Assembly (NCBI RefSeq): GCF_033153115.1
Contig: NW_026889785.1
Span: 9,114,001-9,178,000 of the forward strand
Source: Saccostrea echinata
Taxonomy: Eukaryota
Length of the DNA: 64,000 nt
Direction of reading: 5' to 3'
Shown here: piece after piece, positions 33,090 to 58,269 of the stretch
How the letters are laid out: every line of letters starts with the position of its first letter
Numbering within the stretch: position 1 is the stretch's first letter
The notes under the pieces: model-generated
Database searches by the model: none
Told to the model about the DNA's origin: nothing
What the model saw: only the letters and a program-made list of their open reading frames with translations
Position numbers and translations under genes: made by a program

Positions 33090-33317
33090 TTGAGTAAGCA
33101 AACAACGTTGTTCGCATTATCAAAAGTTCTGACGGGAATAAGAGGAAAAAGGTCAGTAGTGTGTCAGATAACGGAAGTATTAATAAAGGTGAAAAGAATG
33201 ATCATACCAAAAGAAAAAGAAAGTTTCAAGAGAGTTGGAGAGAAAGATTCCCGTGGGTGGAACTGGAAGTCCAGTCTCAATCTACAAGTGATACTGATAA
33301 CGGTGACTTGATGTATT
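33090..33317 (+). pseudogene. hAT transposase N-terminal part
   Basis: Reads RKFQESWRERFPWVEL...DLMY up to the TSD; continues in frame as CSYCR after 56018. Confidence 0.85.
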
Positions 33318-33508
33318 AGTAGTAAGGGGGACAGAGTACAGTCAGTATACAGTCACGATGACGTCATGGGGTTTTCCAGACCCCGCCCACATAGGTCATA
33401 ATATGGGTCACAGTCAAGGGGTGAGTCTACAGTCAATGACGTCATAGGTATCTAAGTGCAAAGAGTGAGTCTACAGTCAATGACCTCACGAGGTAGTTCA
33501 CAGTCAAG
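33318..33508 (+). repeat. Polinton left TIR
   Basis: Reverse complement of 55822-56012. Confidence 0.96.
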
Positions 33509-33690
33509 AGTGAGTCTACAGTCGCTGAGGATATTTAAGTGCACCAAGTGCGTCTACAGTCATTGAGGTCATTACAGTCAAGATCAAGCATTTCACAGTT
33601 TAGTGTGTCAAAGTGTGTTCACAAGGTTTTTTCACAGTCAAATACAGAAAAAAAGCAATAAATACCACAAACATTTAATTTGTTTTTGTT

Positions 33691-33930
33691 ATGACGATGA
33701 ATACTCAGGAAAAGCAGTACAAGTGGAAAATTTTAGCCTGGAGTGCTATAAGAAGAAATGAGAACAAATGGACATTGCAAGAAAGTCAATGGTTTGACAA
33801 AAAAGAGGATTGCATTGCTGATTTTAAGGAAAAAATGAAAAATGGTTATGACATTGCAGACTGCTGGGGATCTGAAGAATACCTACTAAAACGTCGAATT
33901 ATGCCAAAGAAATACTTCCCACATTCCTGA
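33691..33930 (+). CDS. Polinton hypothetical protein (79 aa, Trp-rich)
   Basis: ATG ORF, first in the left gene block, 12 nt upstream of the next ORF; no motif recognised. Confidence 0.6.
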   Translation: MTMNTQEKQYKWKILAWSAIRRNENKWTLQESQWFDKKEDCIADFKEKMKNGYDIADCWGSEEYLLKRRIMPKKYFPHS

Positions 33931-33942
33931 TAAAATATAGCT

Positions 33943-34170
33943 ATGTTAAAAATTCAACGAGGGAGTGGATGCATAAAAAAACTTAAATTTAATGATCATG
34001 TACAAGTAATTTTAATTCCATATGAAGATCGAAAGGGGATTTGGATGGAATTTGCCATAGATAGAGCTCATTTTAAGAGGAGAGTTCAACAAACGGAAAA
34101 TATTTTATTACCTGTGCTTCTTCAGAAGTTCAAACAATGTACACTTTACAGTCAAAAGAACGAAAAATAG
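33943..34170 (+). CDS. GADD34/ICP34.5/DP71L-like PP1-binding eIF2alpha phosphatase adaptor (75 aa)
   Basis: KKLKF (RVxF), VQVI, RKGIWMEFAIDRAHFKRRV..TENILLPVL match the PPP1R15 C-terminal core. Confidence 0.85.
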   Translation: MLKIQRGSGCIKKLKFNDHVQVILIPYEDRKGIWMEFAIDRAHFKRRVQQTENILLPVLLQKFKQCTLYSQKNEK

Positions 34171-34258
34171 GAAAAAGGGAGTGTCTCCCATTTTCGCCTA
34201 ATATGTATAAATAAGTGCCAGTGTGTTAAGTCAGCATACAGTGTTTTATACTGTGAAA

Positions 34259-34690
34259 ATGGATGGTCTTGTAGTAGAGAGAATGCTGAGGAGAATATCT
34301 TTCCAATGGATTCGACGCTTGAACGACTGTTTTCTCGTTTTAACAAGAAGAGAAGAAGAAGATCTAGTGTGGATCTTAATGTACCTGATGCAATGCCAGA
34401 AACTGGCACTTACCATTAAAGGGAAACTTAAGACTTTTAAAAAAGAGAATCTAAACATACCATTATCAAAGTGGAAAAAACTAACGAAGTTAGTGAATGA
34501 TCTTAAAAGGAAAACAGAGGGAATGGACGTGCAGCTCTCTGCAACAATGAGGAAAAAAGAAACACGCCACGCATGTGCTTATTATTTTGGAAAAACACTG
34601 TACAAGACTACAAAGGAATTACTTGAGACGCTTCAAAAAACTCGTAAATTCATAAAAACCAACCGAAAGAACTTTGTTGTGCAAAAATAA
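34259..34690 (+). CDS. Polinton hypothetical basic protein (143 aa)
   Basis: ATG at 34259, upstream TATAAATAAGT at 34206; Lys-rich; no motif recognised. Confidence 0.6.
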   Translation: MDGLVVERMLRRISFQWIRRLNDCFLVLTRREEEDLVWILMYLMQCQKLALTIKGKLKTFKKENLNIPLSKWKKLTKLVNDLKRKTEGMDVQLSATMRKKETRHACAYYFGKTLYKTTKELLETLQKTRKFIKTNRKNFVVQK

Positions 34691-35035
34691 CTGTCAAATG
34701 TGCCTATTGATTAAGAAAAAAAACAAGTTAATTTTACAAAGTATGTAAACAGACATTTGTACAATCAAGAGGTCACAGTCAATTGTTCTACAGTCAGTGC
34801 GTTCTACAGTCAACAGATTTCCACAGGAAGTGCATTCTACAGTCGGTGCGTTCTACAGTCAAAAATTCTACAATTGGTTCATTTTACAGACATGATTCTA
34901 CAGTCAATAGCCACGTGACTTGAATCATATATAAACTTTGAAAATTTCAAAAAGTTTCATCAGTTCTGAGCAAATCTCAGACAGGATACAACTCTGCTTT
35001 TTTTGTTCCTTGTGAGATCCTTGTCAGCAGCAGAA

Positions 35036-36019
35036 ATGGAGCAAAAACATCAAGACTTGATTAAGGCAAACTACTCGACATTGGTGAAGAAGATGATGGC
35101 TGTTCCTGTTGCGGGACATCTTTACGCCTCAAACATAATTACCGATGAAATGAGACAACAGATAGACGCTGAGAAAACCAGCTATGACAAAAACAGAAAA
35201 TTGATCAGCTTCATTTTACGTCGAGGTTCGAGAGCTTTTATGGGACTTAGAATGGCATTAATGAAAGCCAATCAAGCTGACTTATCCCGACTCCTAATGA
35301 ATAAGGATGATGACACAAAGTCTGAGTACGAAAAGAAGCTGGACATGGCAAGATCATTAGTCGTTAATACTAAAGAAAGAGGAGGTTCCAGAAATCAATC
35401 AAAGAAAGTCGATCATCAACAGTCTCAGGAGCCAAGATGTAGGATAAGTTTGGATGACTTTAATGACCTATTCCTCACCGTCATGCCTTTTAAGGGGGAG
35501 ATTTACGTCCACATCCGTCATTTCACAGAATCGCATGGTCGTTTCATTGCCACCAAGAAGGGAGTTACCTTTCCTTTAGCCCGTTGGTTAAAGTTTGAAT
35601 CTCTCTTACCAGATATTCAAGACTACATTGACAATACTGGAAAAGAGGATGAAGAAGCACAGTGGCATGTTGGTGGAGGTGTGTTCGTTTCGTTATCACC
35701 AGGCTATCCGACAGTGGACATAAGACACTTTTGGAAGCCAGACAATGTTCAAGAACCTATACCTACAAGGAAAGGTGTAACTCTAAACAGAAACAAATTT
35801 GCCAGACTTATCGATGTCATCGGGGAGATGCATGAATGTGTTCCAGAACTAAAAGACATTGAACTTTGCATGCTCAGCGAGTCTCATCAAAATCAGCTTG
35901 GAATGTTAAGCTGCCCGGAATGTACCCCCTTTGGCTACGATCCACAAGACAATATATCAATGGAATGTAACGCCGGTGATTTACAAGACAGGGAAACCAT
36001 TGAAAATGATCTTGAATGA
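35036..36019 (+). CDS. CARD + two PC4-like ssDNA-binding domains + C-H-CxxC finger (327 aa)
   Basis: N-terminal death-fold pattern (LIKANYSTLVKKM..HLYASNIITDEMRQQI..KNRKLISFILRRGSRAF..LRMAL..QADLSRLL); PC4 signatures FKGEIYVHIRHF..TKKGVTF..W and VDIRHFW..PTRKGVTL. Confidence 0.82.
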   Translation: MEQKHQDLIKANYSTLVKKMMAVPVAGHLYASNIITDEMRQQIDAEKTSYDKNRKLISFILRRGSRAFMGLRMALMKANQADLSRLLMNKDDDTKSEYEKKLDMARSLVVNTKERGGSRNQSKKVDHQQSQEPRCRISLDDFNDLFLTVMPFKGEIYVHIRHFTESHGRFIATKKGVTFPLARWLKFESLLPDIQDYIDNTGKEDEEAQWHVGGGVFVSLSPGYPTVDIRHFWKPDNVQEPIPTRKGVTLNRNKFARLIDVIGEMHECVPELKDIELCMLSESHQNQLGMLSCPECTPFGYDPQDNISMECNAGDLQDRETIENDLE

Positions 36020-36211
36020 CAATGAACACTAATCCAACATAATTAATGATATGGGTGTAACATTTATTTATTATTTATTGTGTATCTATCTTTTATGTTA
36101 CTATTTCATTCTAACAATATCAAAATAAAATAGTTCAAAATATACCTTGTATTTTTTTACAATGATATAAAATGTTACAACCGAAGAGAGAGATCATTAT
36201 TATGTTTCAGT

Positions 36212-37369
36212 ATGCCAGACTATACGGATTACTTAAGAGAGCTCTACTACACCCCCGGTAAATCGGGGGCCTATGCAGGGCCTGAAAAATTATATCAAGC
36301 TGTTAAACAGGAAGGCAAATACAAGATTGGTAGACGGAGAATAAGACAGTTTTTAAACAATGAAGATTCTTATAGTCTGTATAAACCTATTCGTAAAACA
36401 TTTCCGCGTTCAAAGGTGATAGTGAACACCATTGACTCTATGTGGGATGGTGACTTGGCAGACGTTTCAAACATTGCATCCCATAATGATGGATTTAAAT
36501 TCTTATTAGTGCTTATTGATATATTTAGTCGATATTTATTTATAGTCCCCTTACAAAATAAACATCATCAGAACATTGTTGATGGTTTAAAATCAGTTTT
36601 CCAAAAAGGACGAAAACCTAACACCCTTAGAACAGATAAGGGTAGCGAATTTAAAAATCGTTGGGTAAAGACATTTCTGAAAAAAGAGGGAATAAACGTC
36701 ATATACACTCAAAATGAAACAAAAGCAAATTATGCCGAGAGGGTAATTCGAACCATGAAGAACCTAATGTATCGTTATTTCATGAAGAATCGAACCTACC
36801 GTTTTGTGAATGTTTTGCAAGACTTGGTAAACAGTTACAACAATAGACCTCACAGATCATTAGGTGGGAATGCTCCAACCAATGTGAACCAAGAAAATGT
36901 CGATGAAATAAGACTCGAGTCTTATCTTTCGGGGAAAACAAAACTAGATCTGACCAAAAACGATCTGAACCAGTCTAATGAATCAAGCAAAACAAAAGTG
37001 AAAAAAAGAGTGAAACCCTTTTTCAAATTAAAAATTGGAGATAATGTCAGAATATCACAACTAAAATACCCTTTTCAAAGAGACTACCAACAGAAATGGA
37101 CAGAAGAGTTTTTTAAAGTGAGTGAAAGATACAAACGCGGTCAATTACCTGTGTACAAGGTAAAAGATTTAGCAGACGACCCTATAGAAGGTACATTCTA
37201 TGAGCCTGAGCTTCAAAAAGTCATAAAGTCAGAAGACGTTTCTTATAGAGTGGAGAAAATTCTTAAAAGAAGACGTCGTGGTAAAGCCAAAGAGGTGTAT
37301 GTAAAATGGGAAGGATGGCCAAAAAAATTTAATTCATGGATTCCGGAGAGCTCTCTGGAAAAACAATAA
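36212..37369 (+). CDS. Retroviral-like (rve) integrase with C-terminal chromodomain
   Basis: WDGDLAD, IDIFSRY, RTDKGSEF, AERVIRT, YNNRPH; YRVEKIL...YVKWEGWPKKFNSWIP. Confidence 0.96.
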   Translation: MPDYTDYLRELYYTPGKSGAYAGPEKLYQAVKQEGKYKIGRRRIRQFLNNEDSYSLYKPIRKTFPRSKVIVNTIDSMWDGDLADVSNIASHNDGFKFLLVLIDIFSRYLFIVPLQNKHHQNIVDGLKSVFQKGRKPNTLRTDKGSEFKNRWVKTFLKKEGINVIYTQNETKANYAERVIRTMKNLMYRYFMKNRTYRFVNVLQDLVNSYNNRPHRSLGGNAPTNVNQENVDEIRLESYLSGKTKLDLTKNDLNQSNESSKTKVKKRVKPFFKLKIGDNVRISQLKYPFQRDYQQKWTEEFFKVSERYKRGQLPVYKVKDLADDPIEGTFYEPELQKVIKSEDVSYRVEKILKRRRRGKAKEVYVKWEGWPKKFNSWIPESSLEKQ

Positions 37370-37404
37370 AAGCCATCATTTTTTAGCAATTTCTCTCATT
37401 CAAA

Positions 37405-37827
37405 ATGAGTGTTCGAATGGTGTTGACGTCTACGGACAGCTCTGAATATTTTGAAAATAAACCCAATTGCTTTCGAGTTCAATTAAATAAACAGATTCAA
37501 TTTGACGGATATTGGACTGTTGCCCTGACAGAATTTTCTACAGAGAGTTGGTTGTCATCTAAGAAGAAATCAGAGTTGTTTGTGTGTTGTGATATTTGTG
37601 AGGAAACGATAATTGGGGGAAAAGAGGCACCCCTTCTAAGACGCGTATACCTAGGTGAGAAACCAGAAAGTATCACTTACACACTACCTTATTACATTCC
37701 AGTTAAAATTAGCCAATTACAGCAGATCGCTATATATATAACAGACAGAGAAGGAAACTTAGTTTCATTCTTAAACGGACCGGTGACTGTAACACTTCAT
37801 TTCAAGAAGTTTCCATACGTTTTATGA
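37405..37827 (+). CDS. Minor capsid protein (penton-like single jelly-roll), short form
   Basis: LTSTDSSEYF.N...FRVQL..I...GYWTVAL.E, CDICEE.IIG....PLLRRV, YIPV, VTLHFKK resemble Polinton mCP. Confidence 0.75.
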   Translation: MSVRMVLTSTDSSEYFENKPNCFRVQLNKQIQFDGYWTVALTEFSTESWLSSKKKSELFVCCDICEETIIGGKEAPLLRRVYLGEKPESITYTLPYYIPVKISQLQQIAIYITDREGNLVSFLNGPVTVTLHFKKFPYVL

Positions 37828-38342
37828 TGAATAGCCAAACGTACGTGAGTGATCCCAGAATATGGGAAGCTTTCTACAAGAACATGGCAGAGAAAAAATT
37901 CAACCCTTACAAATACAAGCCAAAACAAATTGGGAGAGGTGTGAGAAGTTACAAGTCTTACGTCATCCCGCTGAGGCCTCACTCGCAGTTAGAACCTGTA
38001 GAAAACAGCACTCAAGTGACTCCAGTAGCTGCTGTGGAGGAAAGAGCTAAAGTGGAACATGCCAAGGACGTTAAAGAGGGGGTTCCATTTGTCAAAGTAC
38101 AGGGGAGTATAAAAAGGCCACATTCACAATCTTCTGTCATTCCTTCAAAGAAATTGAAGCCAACAACATCTCGAAATCCGAGGAAAAAACAGTCAACTAA
38201 ATCTGCAAAACAAAGAAAGGCCTCAGCAGTGAAGAAAAAGAAGACTGTTAAGAAACAACGACGAGCGCCACGCAAGAAAACACAGTCGAGAAAAAAGAAA
38301 GAATTTAACATTGACAGTTACAGAAGTGTCTTTAAACAGTAA
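37824..38342 (+). CDS. Basic, putative DNA-condensing core protein
   Basis: Very K/R-rich C-terminus, QIGRG motif, located between the two capsid genes. Confidence 0.6.
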   Translation: MMNSQTYVSDPRIWEAFYKNMAEKKFNPYKYKPKQIGRGVRSYKSYVIPLRPHSQLEPVENSTQVTPVAAVEERAKVEHAKDVKEGVPFVKVQGSIKRPHSQSSVIPSKKLKPTTSRNPRKKQSTKSAKQRKASAVKKKKTVKKQRRAPRKKTQSRKKKEFNIDSYRSVFKQ

Positions 38343-38344
38343 AA

Positions 38345-50400: not shown

Positions 50401-50934
50401 TAAAAAAATAAAAAAGGATCATTCAGCAACACACTGTGGCCTTCATATGTTATATTCAGGAACTACCGTAATAAGAAAGGGGTCGATTTACACATGTGCA
50501 CACATCTTTAGCAGAAAAATCAATAATACCACGTGACGTAGCATAAGCCACTTGTAAAGTGTTGACGGGGGACTGGTTTTGAAATGATACTTCTTTATGT
50601 GGCGGATTCAGGATTTACTGTTCCCAAAAAAAAGGGGGGGGGGTGTTGGAGTCGAAATCTAATTTACATGCGTTTTAAATTTTGTAAAAATGCATAATTT
50701 GCACTTACCACAAATACGACCACGAAGATCTCGAATCTTTATCATGGCAGGGTCCCCGAAGACAATCACCCGGTTAAGTCCACAGGATGTCACAAACACT
50801 TCACGAACTTCCGTCACGTTCACCCGGACTTCTCGACAGTCCGGCCAGTAACATGTCAACACCCTCCTGTCTACAGGTGCATTTTGCACCGATACAATAC
50901 ATGTCATAATGATTACGAGCGTTCTGTCGTCCAT
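47403..50934 (-). CDS. Spliced type I membrane mucin-stalk protein; exons 50934-50709, 49960-49904, 49654-49595, 49355-49323, 49125-49063, 48818-48786, 48603-48544, 48415-48371, then 48166-47883 or 48166-48080 + 47824-47403
   Basis: All junctions are GT-AG phase 1 and all internal exons are multiples of 3; signal peptide, 4-Cys head, Thr/Ser/Pro-rich stalk, TM followed by basic residues. Confidence 0.78.
48610..49780. repeat. ~535-bp tandem duplication that duplicates an exon pair
   Basis: Identical 33-nt exons at 48786 and 49323; near-identical exons at 49063 and 49595 with shared intron sequence. Confidence 0.85.
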
Positions 50935-52759
50935 CTTGCAATTACACACTTTGAACTGGTCATATGTGCACGTGATAAAAAAGCGCGCGAAGTACCCCGG
51001 TCAACATCCCCCCGACGTATAGAATAACACCATTTATCACTTTAATGATTTTTTTGTTTAAGAGTGTCTGTTTAGAAACTATCACATAAATGATGTATGG
51101 TAAACAATTGTCAACAGAAAATGTTTTGTTTATTTGGAGGGGAGGGATGGGGGATAAGGTAATGACACAGTTTATAACCTTATAGATAACCTTTTTTTTG
51201 GTACAGGTCAGGGATCAGCTTATCTAAGTCATGTTTTACAACCTAATTCAGAATTCTTAACTAAAAAATTTTTTTCTAATCCATAAAGTTTTATTTTGAA
51301 GTCATGTGTCAAAATGATGTAGATTCTGTGTATTTATTAATAAAAATAAAAGTATGAGCTGTTTTCCGTGGTCAATACTCTTACCTTCTCCTTCGTACGT
51401 ATACATGTATGTTATATATGTTTATATATGTCATGTACCATTTACATGGATTTGAGTGAATAAATTGAAATGAATTAAATTGTGAGCTTTTAAAATAAAT
51501 AATAACTTTTTTATATTTCTTAACTTTAAGATGAATAACTATAACTAATATTTTATCTGAAACTTAATCCAATTTAAGAACTCCAGTTATACATACAACA
51601 TCGCTCGATCGTGATATGGAATCGTCGATTGATGAATTGTGATATTGAAAGTGGCTGTACTTTTTTCAGCTCTTTTTTTACATAAATTCTAATTTTGATT
51701 GATCGGGAGTTGATCAAAATTGTTATGGTGTGTATGTTAATAATAATTGATTATTAGATTAATAAGGTTTTAGAAGATAAGTCAACTCGAAGAAGGATAA
51801 ATACTAATTTATGTTTGGCGCAATTTTCAAGGCTAAACTAGACAAACTTTTTTTTTCTGAACACTCGGGTATTGATGAACTTGAGAGTTACAGTGGAGAC
51901 GCGTGATAGTTTGGGCGCAATTTCCAAGGCTAAATTGACATACTTTTTTTCTTTAACACACTCATGCAGGTATAGATAAACTTGTATCCTTGGGAGTTAC
52001 ACAAGAGACGCGTGATAGTTTTGGCGCATTTTCTTGCTGGATATTAAAATGAAATTTTACAACATAAAGACAAAAATAGAGAAACAACGATTAATTTAAT
52101 TGCAGAATAGATTAATTCAAATTCATTTCAAAAAAATGTAATAATAGACATTACAAGACCAACATCACATTTCCTTACAATTTCTCCGTTTTGAAATTAA
52201 TAATCTTTATTTATATGTTAAATGACTTTTTATGCCTTTTCTGAGCTTCAACATATATCTGAGATATTGTCTGGTTTAATAACCCCAGTTAAATACAACA
52301 TCGCTCGATCATAATATGAAATTGTCGATTGATGGATTGTGATTTGGGAAATAAATGAATTTATTCGGGTCTTTTTAAAATAAATTTTAATTGTTATTGA
52401 TCAAGAGTTTATTAAAATTATGTTGTCTTTAGTTAAATTTTTGCATTGAGAAGTTTTAGAAAATAAGCCAATCCGTAGAAGGATAAATGCTACGCAACAG
52501 ACGCATGTCAGTTTTGGCGCAATTTTCAACCATGCTGACTTGACATGAACGTTAATACCTTTTTAGGACTTTCTCAATGTTGACCCCTCAAAAAGGGACA
52601 TTTAGCCCCCATATCGACCTTTGTAAAATCATGATTTAGATTCCCACCCAAAAGCGAACACCTATAAATACGTGATGTTTCCGTCACTCTACCATCAGTC
52701 GAATAATTACCATTATAAACTTAAGACAATCCTCCTCCTCCTCCTCCTCCTCCAACATA

Positions 52760-54753
52760 ATGGCGCAGAAATATCTAGACATGATGTAAGTGTATTTTTC
52801 CTATTTCAATTTTAAAATTTTGTAAAACTAATAATATATGTATCTTAAATGTTAAAATAATAAAGCATTAAATCAAATTTAATTTTAAAAAAATCCAATC
52901 TTTTGTGATCATCTTTGATAATATATTATATAAATACCCCCTTATATATTTTGTTATATTTTTTAAACATTAATTTAGGTTTTAAAAATGTTAATGTTAT
53001 ATTATTTTTTTAAAAAAAAGGGATCAGGAAAAGGCAAGAACATTTAAGGATTTTGAGGACGAATGGGTGGCATTAGGAGAGGAACTCTGCCTTAATGCAT
53101 TTCAACCAGGGTAAGTTGAATGCTAAGAAAATTGAGTATAAATTCTACAAAAATAATACAAAAATAAAATTACAATATTTTTAAATAAGAGATATATTAC
53201 TATTTGAAATAAGTTAAATGTATTTTCTATAATTACATAAGAAAACCCCACTTTTTTAATATAAAACCTAACATTGATATTGATATAGAAATTCTCCTAA
53301 AGAAGAAAACACCCAGAGCCAACCCATCTCTCGAAAAAGACATTTATCCGAAACGGAGGATTCCTACATTTTAAATCAAAGGTATGTTTTATTTTTATGA
53401 ATTTCTTTAACAATTATTTAATATTATGTTAACACATAATTGTTTATATGTTATACCATATTCAAACATTTCGTTTTGAGACTTACTATACATGCATTAC
53501 CTCAAATTTCAACTAGGACTTGACGTAGCATTGTGAGTTTGTAAATATTTGATTTATCTGCAGAAGACTAAAGCAACAAAAGAGAACAGATGACGATCAA
53601 CAAAAGAGAAGGGATGACGATAGCATAATCACCAANNNNNNNNNNNNNNNNNNNNNNNNNNNNNNNNNNNNNNNNNNNNNNNNNNNNNNNNNNNNNNNNN
53701 NNNNNNNNNNNNNNNNNNNNNNNNNNNNNNNNNNNNNNNNNNNNNNNNNNNNNNNNNNNNNNNNNNNNNTTTAAATTTTTATTGATATACTATGGTACAT
53801 AGTATACATATAATACAAGCGAAATAAATTTCCAACTTTTGAATGTGGCATATAATAATAGCTGTTATTACTTTATTAAATTTTGGAAAAAAAAATTAGT
53901 AGTTATCTTTCCGGTTTTTTTTTTTTTGGTATTCAGAAAAAGGGACCCTTTAAGATTTAAAAAACTGGAGGAGAGGATAGGAGAAGACGGAACTCCCGGG
54001 TGTTGGTCCTCAGAGGGACTAAAGGCAGTAGCGACAATTACCCGGTACTCGCCCCAGTCTCCGGAATGCAGCGCCGCTGCGACTAGTACTGGGTTCTTGC
54101 CCCAGTCGCCGCCCCAGTCACTGGATTGCAGCACCAACGCGACAATTACCGGGTACTCGCCCCAGTCGCCGGAATGCACCGCATTAACCTCGGAGGGACT
54201 CAAGGCAGTAGCGACAATTACCCGGTACTCACCCCAGTCGCCGGAATGCACCGCATTAACCTCGGAGGGACTCAAGGCAGTAGCGACAATTACCCGGTAC
54301 TTACCCAAGTCGCCGGAATGCAGCGCCGCCGCGACTAGTACTGGGTTCTCGCCCCAGTCGCCGTCCCAGTCACTGGATTGCAGCACCAACGCGACAATTA
54401 CCGGGTACTCGCCCCAGTCGCCCGAATTCAACACCAACGCGACAATTACCGGGTACTCACCCCAGTCGCCGGATTGCAGCACCAACGCGACAATTACCGG
54501 GTACTCGCCCCAGTCGCCCGAATTCAACACCGCCGCGGCAAAGGGTGGTTACTTGACCCAATCACCCGGGCAGTCTAACACTACACCTGTGACCAGTTTG
54601 GATTTCTTAAAACGTGTAGTTGGCGGTGCCTTCCCCCTTCATAGGGAATTGGATGCCCTGAATGAGTTGGTCGACAGCATGAGAGTCGACCTGTTGCAGA
54701 CATCCATGCTGCTTAATTATGTTAAAGATTTTTTAAAGAGTTATAAATTTTAA
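52760..54753 (+). CDS. Spliced protein with YSPQSP repeats; exons 52760-52785, 53021-53110, 53289-53381, 53564-(gap), 53937-54753
   Basis: TATA 52663 and TCAGT 52695; all visible junctions are GT-AG phase 2; last exon has 6 exact YSPQSP plus 4 variants and a helical C-terminus. Confidence 0.7.
53636..53769. other. Assembly gap (N run)
   Basis: 134 N. Confidence 1.
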
Positions 54754-55009
54754 TTTCAATTGATTATACCTCTTTTTCTTATTGAAAAAGACTATTATTG
54801 TGTATCATAGTGTACCATTGTGAACAATGCCAAGAAAGTTAACTCTGGCAAACATTGTATGAAACATATACATGTTAGAGTTGCTTTTCTTTCTATAATT
54901 CAAAGGGATTGGATTACCGAGTGAGTTGCTCGACTTTTTGAGAGTCCTCTTGTAGTAAATTCTAAGTTAAACTGATTATCCCTATAGATATTTTGTTTAA
55001 TATTTATGA

Positions 55010-55292
55010 AAATGAATGAGTTGGTTGACAGCATAAGAGTCGACCTGTTGCAGACATCCATGTTGATTGATTATGCTAAACATTTTTAAAGAGTTATAAA
55101 TTTTAATTTCAATTGATTATACCTCTATGATTTGTTTGTATTTTTATTAAAAAGACTACCATTGTCTTAAATAGTGTACCATTGTGATTTTTTAAAGTTA
55201 TAAATTTTAATTTCAATTGATTATACCTTTATGTTTTGTTGTATTTTATTGAAAAAGACTACCATTATGTATCATAGTGTACCATTGTGAAC
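55010..55292 (+). repeat. Partial duplications of the 3' end and UTR of the YSPQSP gene
   Basis: aatgagttggt..gagtcgacctgttgcagacatccatg repeats 54660-54830; ttataaattttaatttcaattgattatacc occurs 3 times. Confidence 0.8.
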
Positions 55293-55589
55293 CAGCTATT
55301 GTTTCAAATGTCTGATACAAGTATCTTTGAAACGCAATTAATTTTAATCGGAGGAACCTAGCTATGTTGTCCACTGATTTTTACCAATAAATGATTTTTT
55401 AACAAAAATGTTTATATCGTATAATATCATAAGGTTTATCTCTTATTAAAACCTATATCAATGGCGTCATGTGTTTTGTGTTTCATTTTCCGATATTATT
55501 CAGGTGCTTACCGTGAATGGTTCAGTGGTTCTGTGACTGTAAATGATGTAAATCCAAGGACTTGTCATATTTTATACTGTATCGCACTC

Positions 55590-55780
55590 AGGGGTGTAAC
55601 CGTTAACGCCCATAATATAGAACGGTTTACTGGTTGTTATCAGTTAAAATATGGGACGTGATATATATTGTGGGTGTAACCGTTAACGCCCATAATATAG
55701 AAAGTCATAGTGATTGTTATCAGCTAAAATATGGAACGTCATATACATTGTGGGTGTAACCGTTAACACCCATAAGATAA
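55590..55780. repeat. Subterminal ~80-bp tandem repeat x3
   Basis: gggtgtaaccgttaac(g/a)cccataa at ~55592, 55672, 55752. Confidence 0.85.
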
Positions 55781-55821
55781 GTCACATAAATTTTGTGACG
55801 TCAGTGACTGTGTACTCACCC

Positions 55822-56012
55822 CTTGACTGTGAACTACCTCGTGAGGTCATTGACTGTAGACTCACTCTTTGCACTTAGATACCTATGACGTCATTGACTG
55901 TAGACTCACCCCTTGACTGTGACCCATATTATGACCTATGTGGGCGGGGTCTGGAAAACCCCATGACGTCATCGTGACTGTATACTGACTGTACTCTGTC
56001 CCCCTTACTACT
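55822..56012 (-). repeat. Polinton right TIR
   Basis: Reverse complement of 33318-33508; ends ACTACT. Confidence 0.96.
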
Positions 56013-56018
56013 TGTATT

Positions 56019-58269
56019 GTAGTTACTGTAGGACCTTTCCTGAATGTGCAAACAAAGCAAGTGCTTTATTCAAGGGAACCAATAATTTTAGAATTGATTC
56101 ATTGATTTCTCATGATAAAAATAGTGAACATTTTGTTGCAAGCAGACGCTATTTTACAAAAATTAAAACTGGTGACCAAAATAACAATCGACTCGAACTT
56201 AGAAATTCAAGTGAATCCTGTAGTAGTGGTGCTGTTGATAAATACAAAGAAAAACTGTTACCTACTGTTTCAAGCACAGAAATTGGCAAAGCAATGTACA
56301 GATTATCAGAGGAAGAAAAGAAAAAGATGACCATACTTTTTAACACAGCTTATGCAGTTGCAAAGAATGGAAAACCCTTTACTGATTATCTCTATTTGTA
56401 TGAACTGAATATGTTGAATGGTTTGTATTTGGGTGGCCAGTATATTAACATTCATGCTTGTGAAAGTTTTGTTGAAGCCATAAGTCAAACATATCGAGAG
56501 AAAATTCAGGCTGAAATTCTGAAGACAAACTGTGTTAGTATTCTGGCAGATGGTTCAACTGATGCTGCTGTAATGGAACAGGAAATTGTGTACTTGCGGT
56601 AAGTGTTTCAGTATGAGTATTTTCAGATGATAAACTGTTCTTGTCAGTGGGATTAAGGAATTGTATGGCAAAATAATTGAAAAAAAATTGCATGGAATAA
56701 AAAAATGGTAATATAAAAAGTCTGCATCAATTCATTATTCTTTTATTCTATAATTATTTATTAGGCATGTTCAGCCATATTCTGGAGTTCCTGTATGTAG
56801 ACAAATAGACATAATTGCTGTTCAATCTTCAGATGCCTCTGGAATCCTTGCTGCATTGCACCAGGCTGTAGAAAAGGGTGTGAATATCCACATGAATGAT
56901 CTCCATCCAAATCATGAGGGAACACCATCTCTTATAATGGACAATTTTGATGGAGCATCTGTTAACTTTGGGGCAAAGTCAGGAGTTGTGAAACTGAAGC
57001 AAGATTTTCCAGATCTGTTATCTTTACAATGTGTTGCACATAAATTAGAATTGTCAATTTTAGATGCTGTAAAATGTTGGAAATACCTCAGTGATGTTTT
57101 TGATGAGGCTGCTAAAGGAATATTCAAGTTTTATCACTATTCTCCAAAAAGAAGGAGAGAACTGAAAGCTATTGCAGAGGTACTTGACAAGGATCTAGTG
57201 CATTTTTCAAATGTAAAGCAAGTCAGATGGCTTGCCAGCAAGTCTAGAGCGCTTGCTACTGTAAAAAAAAAATTGAGCAGGTTGTTACTCATCTAAGGAC
57301 AAAAATTTGTCCAGTAAATGTTTAGAAAGTTCAAGCAAAGCTCTAGGCTATGTGAAAAAAATTAAATCTGTCAAATTTGTGAAGGTTTTTCATTTCATGC
57401 TTGATTTTTTACCTATTGTGGCAGATATGTCAAAAGCTTTCCAATCTGAGACTGTGTTGTTGTTTGAAGTACCAATACTTATTCAAGGGGTTATATTGGC
57501 TTTTGAATCACTAAAAACAAATCCAGGAACTCATATGCAAGAATTCCTAGATAGGTTTGATAGTGAGACATGCACATATAGTAGTGTAAAGTAAACAAAC
57601 AAAACCCAAACTCTCAATTACACTGATGATCATGAAGTCACCAAGTTTTTGTCTGATGTTATCACCTATGTGACAAAAAGGTTTGAAACATTGTACCAAC
57701 CACCTTTCTCTTTCTTTAGCATTTTCGATGTGGAAAAACTGGCCAGTCCTCATACCTGAACTTGGCCAATTTGGAGTTAGTGAGTTGATGTTAATTGTCA
57801 ATCACAAAAGCTTTTCATTTTTGTTTACAGAAGAAGAAAAGTTAGTGATTGTATCACAATGGTGTCTTTTAAAAGCTAAAGTAAGACACCTCAGACATGT
57901 ACCATTAGTTGATGTATTTTCTTCATTGATTGCTGAAAACAAAGTGAAAACAATCAGCTGGGTGCTATCTGTAAAGTTGTTGAAGTTATGATGACTCTCT
58001 CTCCCAGTACTGCTAGCTGTGAGAGGGGGTTTTCTATTCAAAACATTTTAAAAACAAACAAAAGAACTAGATTAACTCAAAGTAATCTTAGAAATCAGCT
58101 GCTTCTGATGACGGAAGGCCCCCCTGTAAATGAATTTATTGCAGATGAGAGTATTTCTAAGTGGTTGCTGTCAAGCACCAAAGGAAGACATATTCAGGGG
58201 CACAAACTGAAAGATACAAACAGAGATCCTGATTCAGAAATGTATTATGAAAGTAGTAAAGTAATATGA
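56019..58269 (+). pseudogene. hAT transposase remainder (frameshifts and stops; intron ~56599-56764)
   Basis: SILADGSTD, FDGASVNFG, QCVAHKLEL, VRWLAS and dimerisation motif STASCERGFS, spread over several frames. Confidence 0.9.

Follow-up and report, generated by a model that had tools for sequence, protein, structure and literature searches.

The 64,000-nucleotide stretch of the oyster Saccostrea echinata genome analyzed here (contig NW_026889785.1, positions 9,114,001 to 9,178,000; hereafter the window) carries a recently inserted, apparently complete Polinton, an element of a well-known family that lies here within the remains of a hAT transposase gene (Table 1). Our overall reading, to which we assign a probability of about 0.8, is of a Polinton, complete and from an old oyster lineage, that was freshly inserted in a dead hAT gene and is equipped with a spliced polymerase and accessory genes. 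A first-pass annotation had described an apparently intact, very young Polinton at this site; its observations and interpretation hold in part, with the polymerase intron, an assembly gap, and the accessory genes having been overlooked.

The terminal inverted repeats (TIRs) are 100% identical over 191 bp (a longer alignment reaches 212 bp at 97.6% identity, with one gap) and have the (AGT)2//(ACT)2 ends characteristic of Polintons/Mavericks. With no differences in 191 positions, TIR divergence lies below 1.6% (95% bound), though an assembler may render two near-identical ends identical. A 6-bp target-site duplication (TSD), also typical of the family, is found at both borders; from base composition, such a match at fixed positions would arise by chance with a probability of ~7e-4. 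The hAT frames on either side of the element join via a single TSD copy. The right flank matches Pfam zf-C17orf113 (E 1e-4, under the curated cutoff), its first residue falling on profile position 16, so that the insertion splits a zinc finger; the left-flank piece by itself has no Pfam match. The 3' part of the hAT gene, which we take to be ZNF862/C17orf113-like, also matches Dimer_Tnp_hAT (E 0.005) and is interrupted by several frame changes and stops within 56754-58269. The identical TIRs, the perfect TSD, the hAT frame restored on removal of the element plus one TSD, and the heavy decay of the host gene had all been put forward in the first-pass annotation and were all recovered, and TIR divergence, TSD, and split finger together support its picture of a young and intact Polinton sitting within the zinc finger of a hAT gene. 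As 134 N lie inside the element, its length and the reading frame across this gap are incompletely read.

By every defining feature tested, the element is a Polinton. The integrase matches rve at 45.4 bits against a cutoff of 32.6 and, as in adintoviruses, carries a C-terminal chromodomain (residues 345-385). A single jelly-roll minor capsid protein (mCP) is indicated by an AlphaFold2 (AF2) model of high confidence (pLDDT 94.8), whose best fold match is a chain of PBCV-1 (Z 13.6, root-mean-square deviation 3.0, 136 aligned), followed by Sputnik (Z 11.4), the mavirus penton (11.2), and an aviadenovirus (10.4). The double jelly-roll (DJR) nature of the major capsid protein (MCP) is more weakly indicated, by a below-cutoff match to a DJR-like profile that is also matched by 12 of 43 aligned relatives (best 5e-5). 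A packaging ATPase is recognized by its Pox_A32 similarity and Walker motifs, and an adenovirus-like protease by its identity to P0107, a protein with PF00770 on record, and by its H/D/Q/C residues. Sequence searches of the PDB with mCP, protease, and MCP returned nothing at E <0.1, and an NCBIfam search gave weak matches alone. The sixth core gene encodes a protein-primed family B polymerase (pPolB) with Exo and Pol motifs and a DNA_pol_B_2 match in both of its exons. What we take to be the catalytic motifs of the integrase (D, D, E), protease (H, D, Q, C), ATPase (Walker A, B), and pPolB are all present. The 172-aa basic protein encoded among the capsid genes is likely a DNA-binding core protein, judging by its composition.

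Two metagenome loci, L001 and L002, have the gene order of the window element and open reading frames (ORFs) of nearly equal length. Integrase, mCP, MCP, protease, and ATPase are each encoded by one open ORF of nearly the same length as its counterparts, and comparison with these relatives revealed neither stops nor frameshifts in the core ORFs, inactivating mutations being what the first-pass annotation had named as grounds for abandoning its reading. Its statement that all six core genes are open with catalytic residues holds for these five; pPolB is spread over two ORFs (46340-43362 and 43136-41631).

These two ORFs are separated by a GT-AG intron within the nuclease-like insert of the polymerase. 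An intron with GT-AG ends is found at the same codon in L001 (120 nt) and L002 (140 nt), with exon 1 being 65% identical to L001 across 987 codons. One contig from RNA run X6 starts at 43371, and its 11 loose letters occur in the window solely at 43219-43229, beside the acceptor, while a contig from run X5 ends at 43229 with 144 letters overhanging. The contigs showing splicing come from related copies and not from the copy in the window; the intron is functional, its removal being seen in a related copy. The alternative that the break in pPolB is an inactivating lesion was ruled out by the conserved GT-AG intron and the spliced contig. A C-run followed by a G-run is kept in the intron in the window (43232-43372), L001 (9843-9962), and L002 (9170-9309) despite saturated synonymous sites, and may form a structure controlling splicing. 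The nuclease-like insert, which presumably carries a VSR-type motif, gave a weak match to REase_MTES_1575 in exon 2 (E 0.007, far below the cutoff), and there was no Pfam match, to an OTU-like domain or any other, in the N-terminal region (first 447 residues).

Comparison with L001 and L002 showed nonsynonymous differences (pN 0.05-0.31) far below the high level of synonymous ones (pS 0.61-0.88) in 22 of 22 gene-by-relative comparisons, and the lineage is therefore old and subject to strong purifying selection. The ratio of nonsynonymous to synonymous substitution rates (dN/dS) was 0.02-0.24 wherever dS could be computed, and the capsid was most constrained, with an MCP dN of merely 0.05-0.06 at saturated dS. 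The closest named relatives of the MCP are all from oysters and are up to 95% identical; those at 85-95% identity come from Saccostrea, Ostrea, and Crassostrea/Magallana, with a single one from Pinctada, pointing to a true oyster as the most likely host. A tree was built from 40 rows, the window MCP and 39 named proteins of at least 420 aa out of 120 listed matches plus cluster members, with unnamed Logan, ENA, and JGI rows and short rows left out; 4 distant rows were dropped for approximately unbiased (AU) tests. This tree requires 18 changes of host label where 7 would be the minimum, and among the Ostrea edulis MCPs it places one from Pinctada imbricata at 94% identity. AU tests rejected both a single clade of the 32 oyster rows without Pinctada (p-AU 0.001, for a group chosen after the tree was seen) and a single clade of O. 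edulis (p 1e-8). High MCP identity across genera was discarded as proof of recent transfer since dS is already saturated at 91% MCP identity, and for the same reason the tree shows several lineages shared among hosts but does not show recent transfer.

Sequencing data show that the family is transcribed. Four of the 24 listed runs were aligned, to window positions 33150-53149 alone (the right junction lies outside), using contigs plus 1% of one RNA run. In the stranded poly(A) run X23, first mates over 35151-39819 map mostly to the minus strand, the orientation that sense RNA of the plus-strand genes should give (179 records aligned, mostly <95% alike). In DNA run X1, 833 contigs aligned, 152 of them at 99% identity or more, 220 at 95-99%, 245 at 90-95%, and 216 under 90%, and this spread over all identity levels indicates a multi-copy, mixed family. 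In X5 and X23, TIR ends adjoin other flanks, reflecting other insertion sites in the family. No empty site was present among the matches listed for the four runs over 33150-53149. As for the copy in the window itself, the largest share of its sampled words present in any of the 24 listed runs is 0.26, short of half; this copy was thus not found elsewhere, which is not evidence of rarity or absence. Within study P5, the word share was 0.16 in X11 versus 0.00 in X21 and X22, so expression or carriage may differ among its samples, a comparison that concerns word shares alone in unaligned runs.

Table 1. Features of the Polinton and its insertion site (positions in the window)
Feature	Position	Strand	Remarks
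hAT 5' piece, stops inside zinc finger	33098-33316	+	73 open codons to TSD
Left TSD	33312-33317		TGTATT
Polinton element	33318-56012		22,695 bp; identical TIRs and TSD on both sides
Left TIR	33318-33508		Starts AGTAGT; 191 bp identical to right TIR
79-aa ORF, no known family, conserved	33691-33930	+	72-73% identical in L001, L002
75-aa GADD34/ICP34.5/DP71L-like PP1 recruiter, predicted eIF2-alpha phosphatase adaptor	33943-34170	+	Pfam PP1c_bdg
143-aa ORF, doubtful, not conserved	34259-34690	+	
CARD-PC4 fusion, 327 aa	35036-36019	+	CARD E 4e-12, PC4 E 4e-15; 68% identical in L001
rve integrase with C-terminal chromodomain, 385 aa	36212-37369	+	rve E 1e-11, Chromo E 6e-10
Minor capsid (penton) protein mCP, single jelly roll, 140 aa	37405-37827	+	AF2 fold
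172-aa basic protein	37824-38342	+	Lys/Arg-rich; 67% identical in L001 and L002
Major capsid protein MCP, 438 aa	38345-39661	+	Pfam DJR-like E 0.003, below cutoff
Adenovirus-like maturation protease, 155 aa	39658-40125	+	40% identical (E 2e-32) to C-terminal part of P0107
A32/FtsK-like packaging ATPase, 227 aa	40226-40909	+	Pox_A32 E 0.001, below cutoff; Walker A and B
Two short conserved ORFs, 109 aa and 89 aa, no known family	40948-41531	+	64-70% / 54% identical in L001, L002
pPolB exon 2 (end of nuclease-like insert; Pol A, B, C)	41631-43231	-	DNA_pol_B_2 E 6.5e-25
pPolB intron	43232-43372	-	141 nt, GT-AG
pPolB exon 1 (N-terminal region, Cys-rich part, Exo I-III)	43373-46340	-	DNA_pol_B_2 E 8e-20
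Gene A, predicted 10-exon type I membrane glycoprotein	47403-50934	-	
Gene A last exon, membrane anchor and Pro/Ser/Asp-rich tail	47824-47403	-	
Gene A possible alternative membrane anchor and tail	47883-48079	-	Used if last intron retained
Gene A juxtamembrane exon	48166-48080	-	
Gene A seven Ser/Thr-rich stalk exons	49960-48371	-	
Gene A exon 1, signal peptide and small Cys domain	50934-50709	-	
Gene B, 5 phase-2 exons	52760-54753	+	52760-52785, 53021-53110, 53289-53381, 53564 to gap, 53937-54753
Assembly gap inside gene B	53636-53769		134 N
Right TIR	55822-56012		Terminates ACTACT; 191 bp identical to left TIR
Right TSD	56013-56018		TGTATT
hAT 3' part, frame changes and stops	56015-58269	+	Weak zf-C17orf113 and Dimer_Tnp_hAT matches

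The accessory genes and the pPolB intron are the more unusual part of the element. In the left arm, the 75-aa ORF resembles the region by which GADD34, ICP34.5, and DP71L dock protein phosphatase 1 (PP1) and bind eIF2-alpha: its PP1c_bdg match scores 28.0 bits against a cutoff of 26.1 (E 2e-6), with imperfect motifs, and it is 63-66% identical in L001 and L002. The neighboring 79-aa ORF has no Pfam match and a dN/dS of 0.09 against L002, and the 143-aa ORF matched none of 12 loci by tblastn and no Pfam family. The motif ACAGTC(A) is repeated in the terminal region 33318-33660 (6 TACAGTCA), and six copies of ACAGTC also occur in 34690-35036, upstream of the CARD-PC4 fusion gene (repeats at 34775-34905); these repeats are possible shared binding or promoter sites. 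At its left end, L001 has a 150-aa ORF (259-711) with a membrane segment and a PC4-like tail that is absent from the window copy.

The right arm, 9.5 kb that read as empty to ORF finders, holds two predicted multi-exon genes, which we call A and B. All eight internal exons of gene A are multiples of 3 with AG/GT ends, Ser or Thr makes up 51 of 110 residues of the predicted stalk, and ends of X5 contigs coincide with two of its nine acceptors (48415 and 47824). A similar last exon is found at the same place and strand in L001. Retention of the last intron would add 65 open codons including a 19-residue segment with a hydropathy of 3.0; among 20,000 shuffles, 14 gave a frame as long and three a segment as hydrophobic (uncorrected for nine introns), and the frame was not seen in L001. 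Gene A thus possibly carries two alternative membrane anchors. The stalk exons (48481-49786) derive from a ~530-bp duplicated unit at 87% identity, and since an X5 contig has a different Thr-rich exon at acceptor 48415, stalk length may vary among copies. A search with exon 1 found two clusters (184 and 3 members), in which none of the 43 members read has a name, and its AF2 model was poor (pLDDT 52.6) with a meaningless best fold match (Z 3.8). The ESM Atlas had no usable match for exon 1 of gene A or the last exon of gene B.

Gene B matches NCBI models from two Saccostrea species, and its predicted product has a basic motif, Ser/Thr-Pro repeats, and a conserved helical C-terminus. P0121, an NCBI model from S. 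echinata, aligns with exons 1, 2, 3, and 5 by tblastn and with exon 4 by eye; because these exons lie on both sides of the N gap and in order, the scaffold join is supported. The motif YSPQSP occurs six times exactly and ten times loosely, with exact copies at least 16 residues apart, whereas relatives P0122 and P0123 have one motif of this type and P0121 none that is exact. We take the motif to resemble the RNA polymerase II heptad, and mimicry of the polymerase C-terminal domain is a weak lead, downgraded because the repeat expansion is seen in the window copy alone. A broken partial duplicate of the gene B 3' end lies at 55012-55110.

Taken together, these observations suggest how the element would have arrived and how its family may operate. 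Ends, TSD, and split zinc finger show an integrase-type insertion, in which the element was recently pasted into the dead hAT transposase gene by its own rve integrase; from what is known of the family, it would work as a self-synthesizing element in which the protein-primed polymerase copies linear DNA from the identical ends after excision. Polymerase mRNA would depend on host splicing, as seen in a related copy. As judged from their domains alone, the accessory genes fit a nuclear virus managing its host cell: the PP1 adaptor would reverse eIF2-alpha shut-off, the CARD-PC4 fusion could act on death-domain signaling or transcription, gene B may be a phosphorylation-site-rich nuclear protein, and gene A may be a mucin-like surface protein that could shield the cell or aid attachment. 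Because the capsid module (MCP, penton, protease, ATPase, and basic core protein) is under strong purifying selection, we think it fairly probable that, now and then at least, the lineage still forms particles; particle competence of this particular copy, which the first-pass annotation had proposed along with mobility and possible polymorphism among individuals, is less likely than not. A still broader interpretation, in which the locus is a fresh, unfixed integration of a circulating oyster DNA virus lineage that has moved between oyster genera and into pearl oysters and that has a host-spliced polymerase, a DP71L-like anti-shut-off gene, and a variable mucin-like protein with switchable anchors, we consider rather unlikely.

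The strongest competitor is a purely intragenomic transposon that moves within oyster genomes only and makes no infectious particle, its capsid genes being recent relics or retained for some other reason. This we regard as plausible, if somewhat short of an even chance: virions or free DNA are not shown, none of nine pattern matches in IMG/VR proved to be a relative of the MCP, with dS saturated, recent transfer does not follow from 90-95% identity across genera, and introns in core and accessory genes point to a long stay in a splicing host. Against it stand the low dN of the MCP at saturated dS and the MCP tree, with its excess of host changes, Pinctada imbricata inside Ostrea edulis, and rejection of oyster monophyly; the PP1 adaptor also better suits a productive viral phase than transposition alone.

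It is much less probable that genes A and B belong to the host or were inserted separately and became trapped in the element. Both are intron-rich, intron-bearing cargo of host origin is known from the part considered of a study of nematode Mavericks (Widen et al., 10.1101/2022.07.12.499685), and X1 depth over the arm is ~200-500 in most bins versus ~700-1800 over the core. Yet a similar membrane-anchor exon occupies the same place and strand in L001, for which dS is saturated, neither gene matched a cellular family, and P0121 (gene B) and P0051 (MCP) of S. echinata have close locus numbers and same-sized contigs, from which their adjacency is inferred. Least probable is an older or dead copy whose identical TIRs are an assembly artifact or whose halves come from two copies joined across the N gap. 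The gap itself and a multi-copy family with X1 contigs at all identity levels would allow for it, but the perfect TSD, flanks that are consecutive parts of one zinc finger, the collinearity of gene B with P0121 across the gap, and core ORFs free of stops or frameshifts relative to L001 and L002 argue otherwise.

Several observations weigh against a complete Polinton with a spliced polymerase and working accessory genes. The MCP, ATPase, and protease assignments rely on weak or indirect matches together with position and length and are best considered putative. The PP1 adaptor in the window fits its two motifs worse than does the L001 copy, gene A lacks both a named relative and an informative fold, and part of gene B is hidden by the gap. 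The run evidence concerns related copies, as the best word share indicates, and none of the predicted introns appears among the joints listed (15 of 53). Contigs from X5, for which an RNA nature is a guess, and X6 also cross exon-intron borders, and these libraries must therefore hold DNA or unspliced RNA. Antisense reads exceed sense reads in X23 over part of pPolB, which may reflect silencing.

The comparisons that follow are with those parts of the published accounts considered here. Vertebrate Polintons/Mavericks measure 12.7-24.6 kb with (AGT)2//(ACT)2 ends and a 6-bp TSD (Barreat and Katzourakis, PMC8097293), and the oyster element shares these ends and this TSD, falls within the size range, and has the same core genes in two convergent modules with flanking accessory regions. 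It differs in that its ATPase is grouped with the capsid genes and pPolB stands alone on the opposite strand, and in that, where introns are not seen in genes of intact vertebrate elements (PMC8097293), it has one in pPolB and nine and four predicted introns in its accessory genes. Nematode Mavericks likewise have intronless core genes, in contrast to the pPolB intron conserved here in L001 and L002, along with intron-bearing cargo and MFUS-1, an 866-aa gB-like fusogen (Widen et al., 10.1101/2022.07.12.499685). The oyster element resembles these in having intron-bearing genes in an accessory arm and a predicted signal-peptide, single-anchor membrane protein; unlike MFUS-1, the predicted gene A product is short, has a mucin stalk, and yielded no match to a fusogen fold.

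Mollusc pPolB2 Polintons, whose polymerase carries a VSR insert, were surveyed with a filter of ORFs of at least 900 aa (Jeong et al., 10.1101/2023.08.22.554363). Compared by description, the element agrees with these in its mollusc host, Exo I-III and Pol A-C motifs, and nuclease-like insert (a weak REase match) and departs from them in the spliceosomal pPolB intron, which is not mentioned in the portion of that account considered. The integrase with its C-terminal chromodomain, hexon, penton, protease, and ATPase recall adintoviruses (Buck et al., 10.1101/2024.03.25.586562; Starrett et al., PMC8502044), the difference being that Pfam detects no OTU-like domain at the N-terminus of the oyster PolB. 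Like GADD34, herpes simplex virus ICP34.5, and African swine fever virus (ASFV) DP71L, the predicted adaptor scores above the PP1c_bdg cutoff, and its 75 aa are close to the 70-72 aa of the short ASFV DP71L (PMC5346070); unlike these, it is Polinton-borne, has imperfect motifs, and is a candidate known here by sequence alone.

Polinton-like regions are known to be abundant in bivalves from a survey that, in the part considered, ignored introns (10.1101/2025.04.19.649669), and an intact oyster copy alone is therefore no surprise. An introner preprint, in its portion considered, describes introns inserted in dinoflagellate elements. Among the matches listed in our literature search, neither titles nor abstract openings described Polintons with a PP1 adaptor, a mucin-like protein, or a pPolB whose splicing is conserved, though Repbase, subscription papers, and preprint supplements may hold such. 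A spliced polymerase means that surveys based on ORF length can miss or misjudge such elements. Animal Polinton virions have not been observed so far, according to the part considered of one account (Jeong et al., 10.1101/2023.08.22.554363), and with a multi-copy family that is complete and transcribed, in a farmed animal for which large public data sets exist, particle formation can be tested by observation. An anti-shut-off gene and a variable surface glycoprotein, as predicted here, would be traits of viruses meeting host defense and offer single-gene tests.

Elsewhere in the window, a second element (6001-18902) has 192-bp TIRs at 100% identity, 12.5 kb apart, with TA at both ends, and looks young. 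Its DDE_3 transposase exon (12535-13743) encodes a PHD finger at the C-terminus and 83 residues between the second D and the E, and the element presumably resembles the Sailor (DD82E) group of Tc1/mariner. Arrays of 156-168-bp units lie at 7270-8299, 19883-21207, and 25686-26598, with short ACAG/TGTC repeats beside two of them, and we take these arrays to be like the Helentron-borne satellites of oysters.

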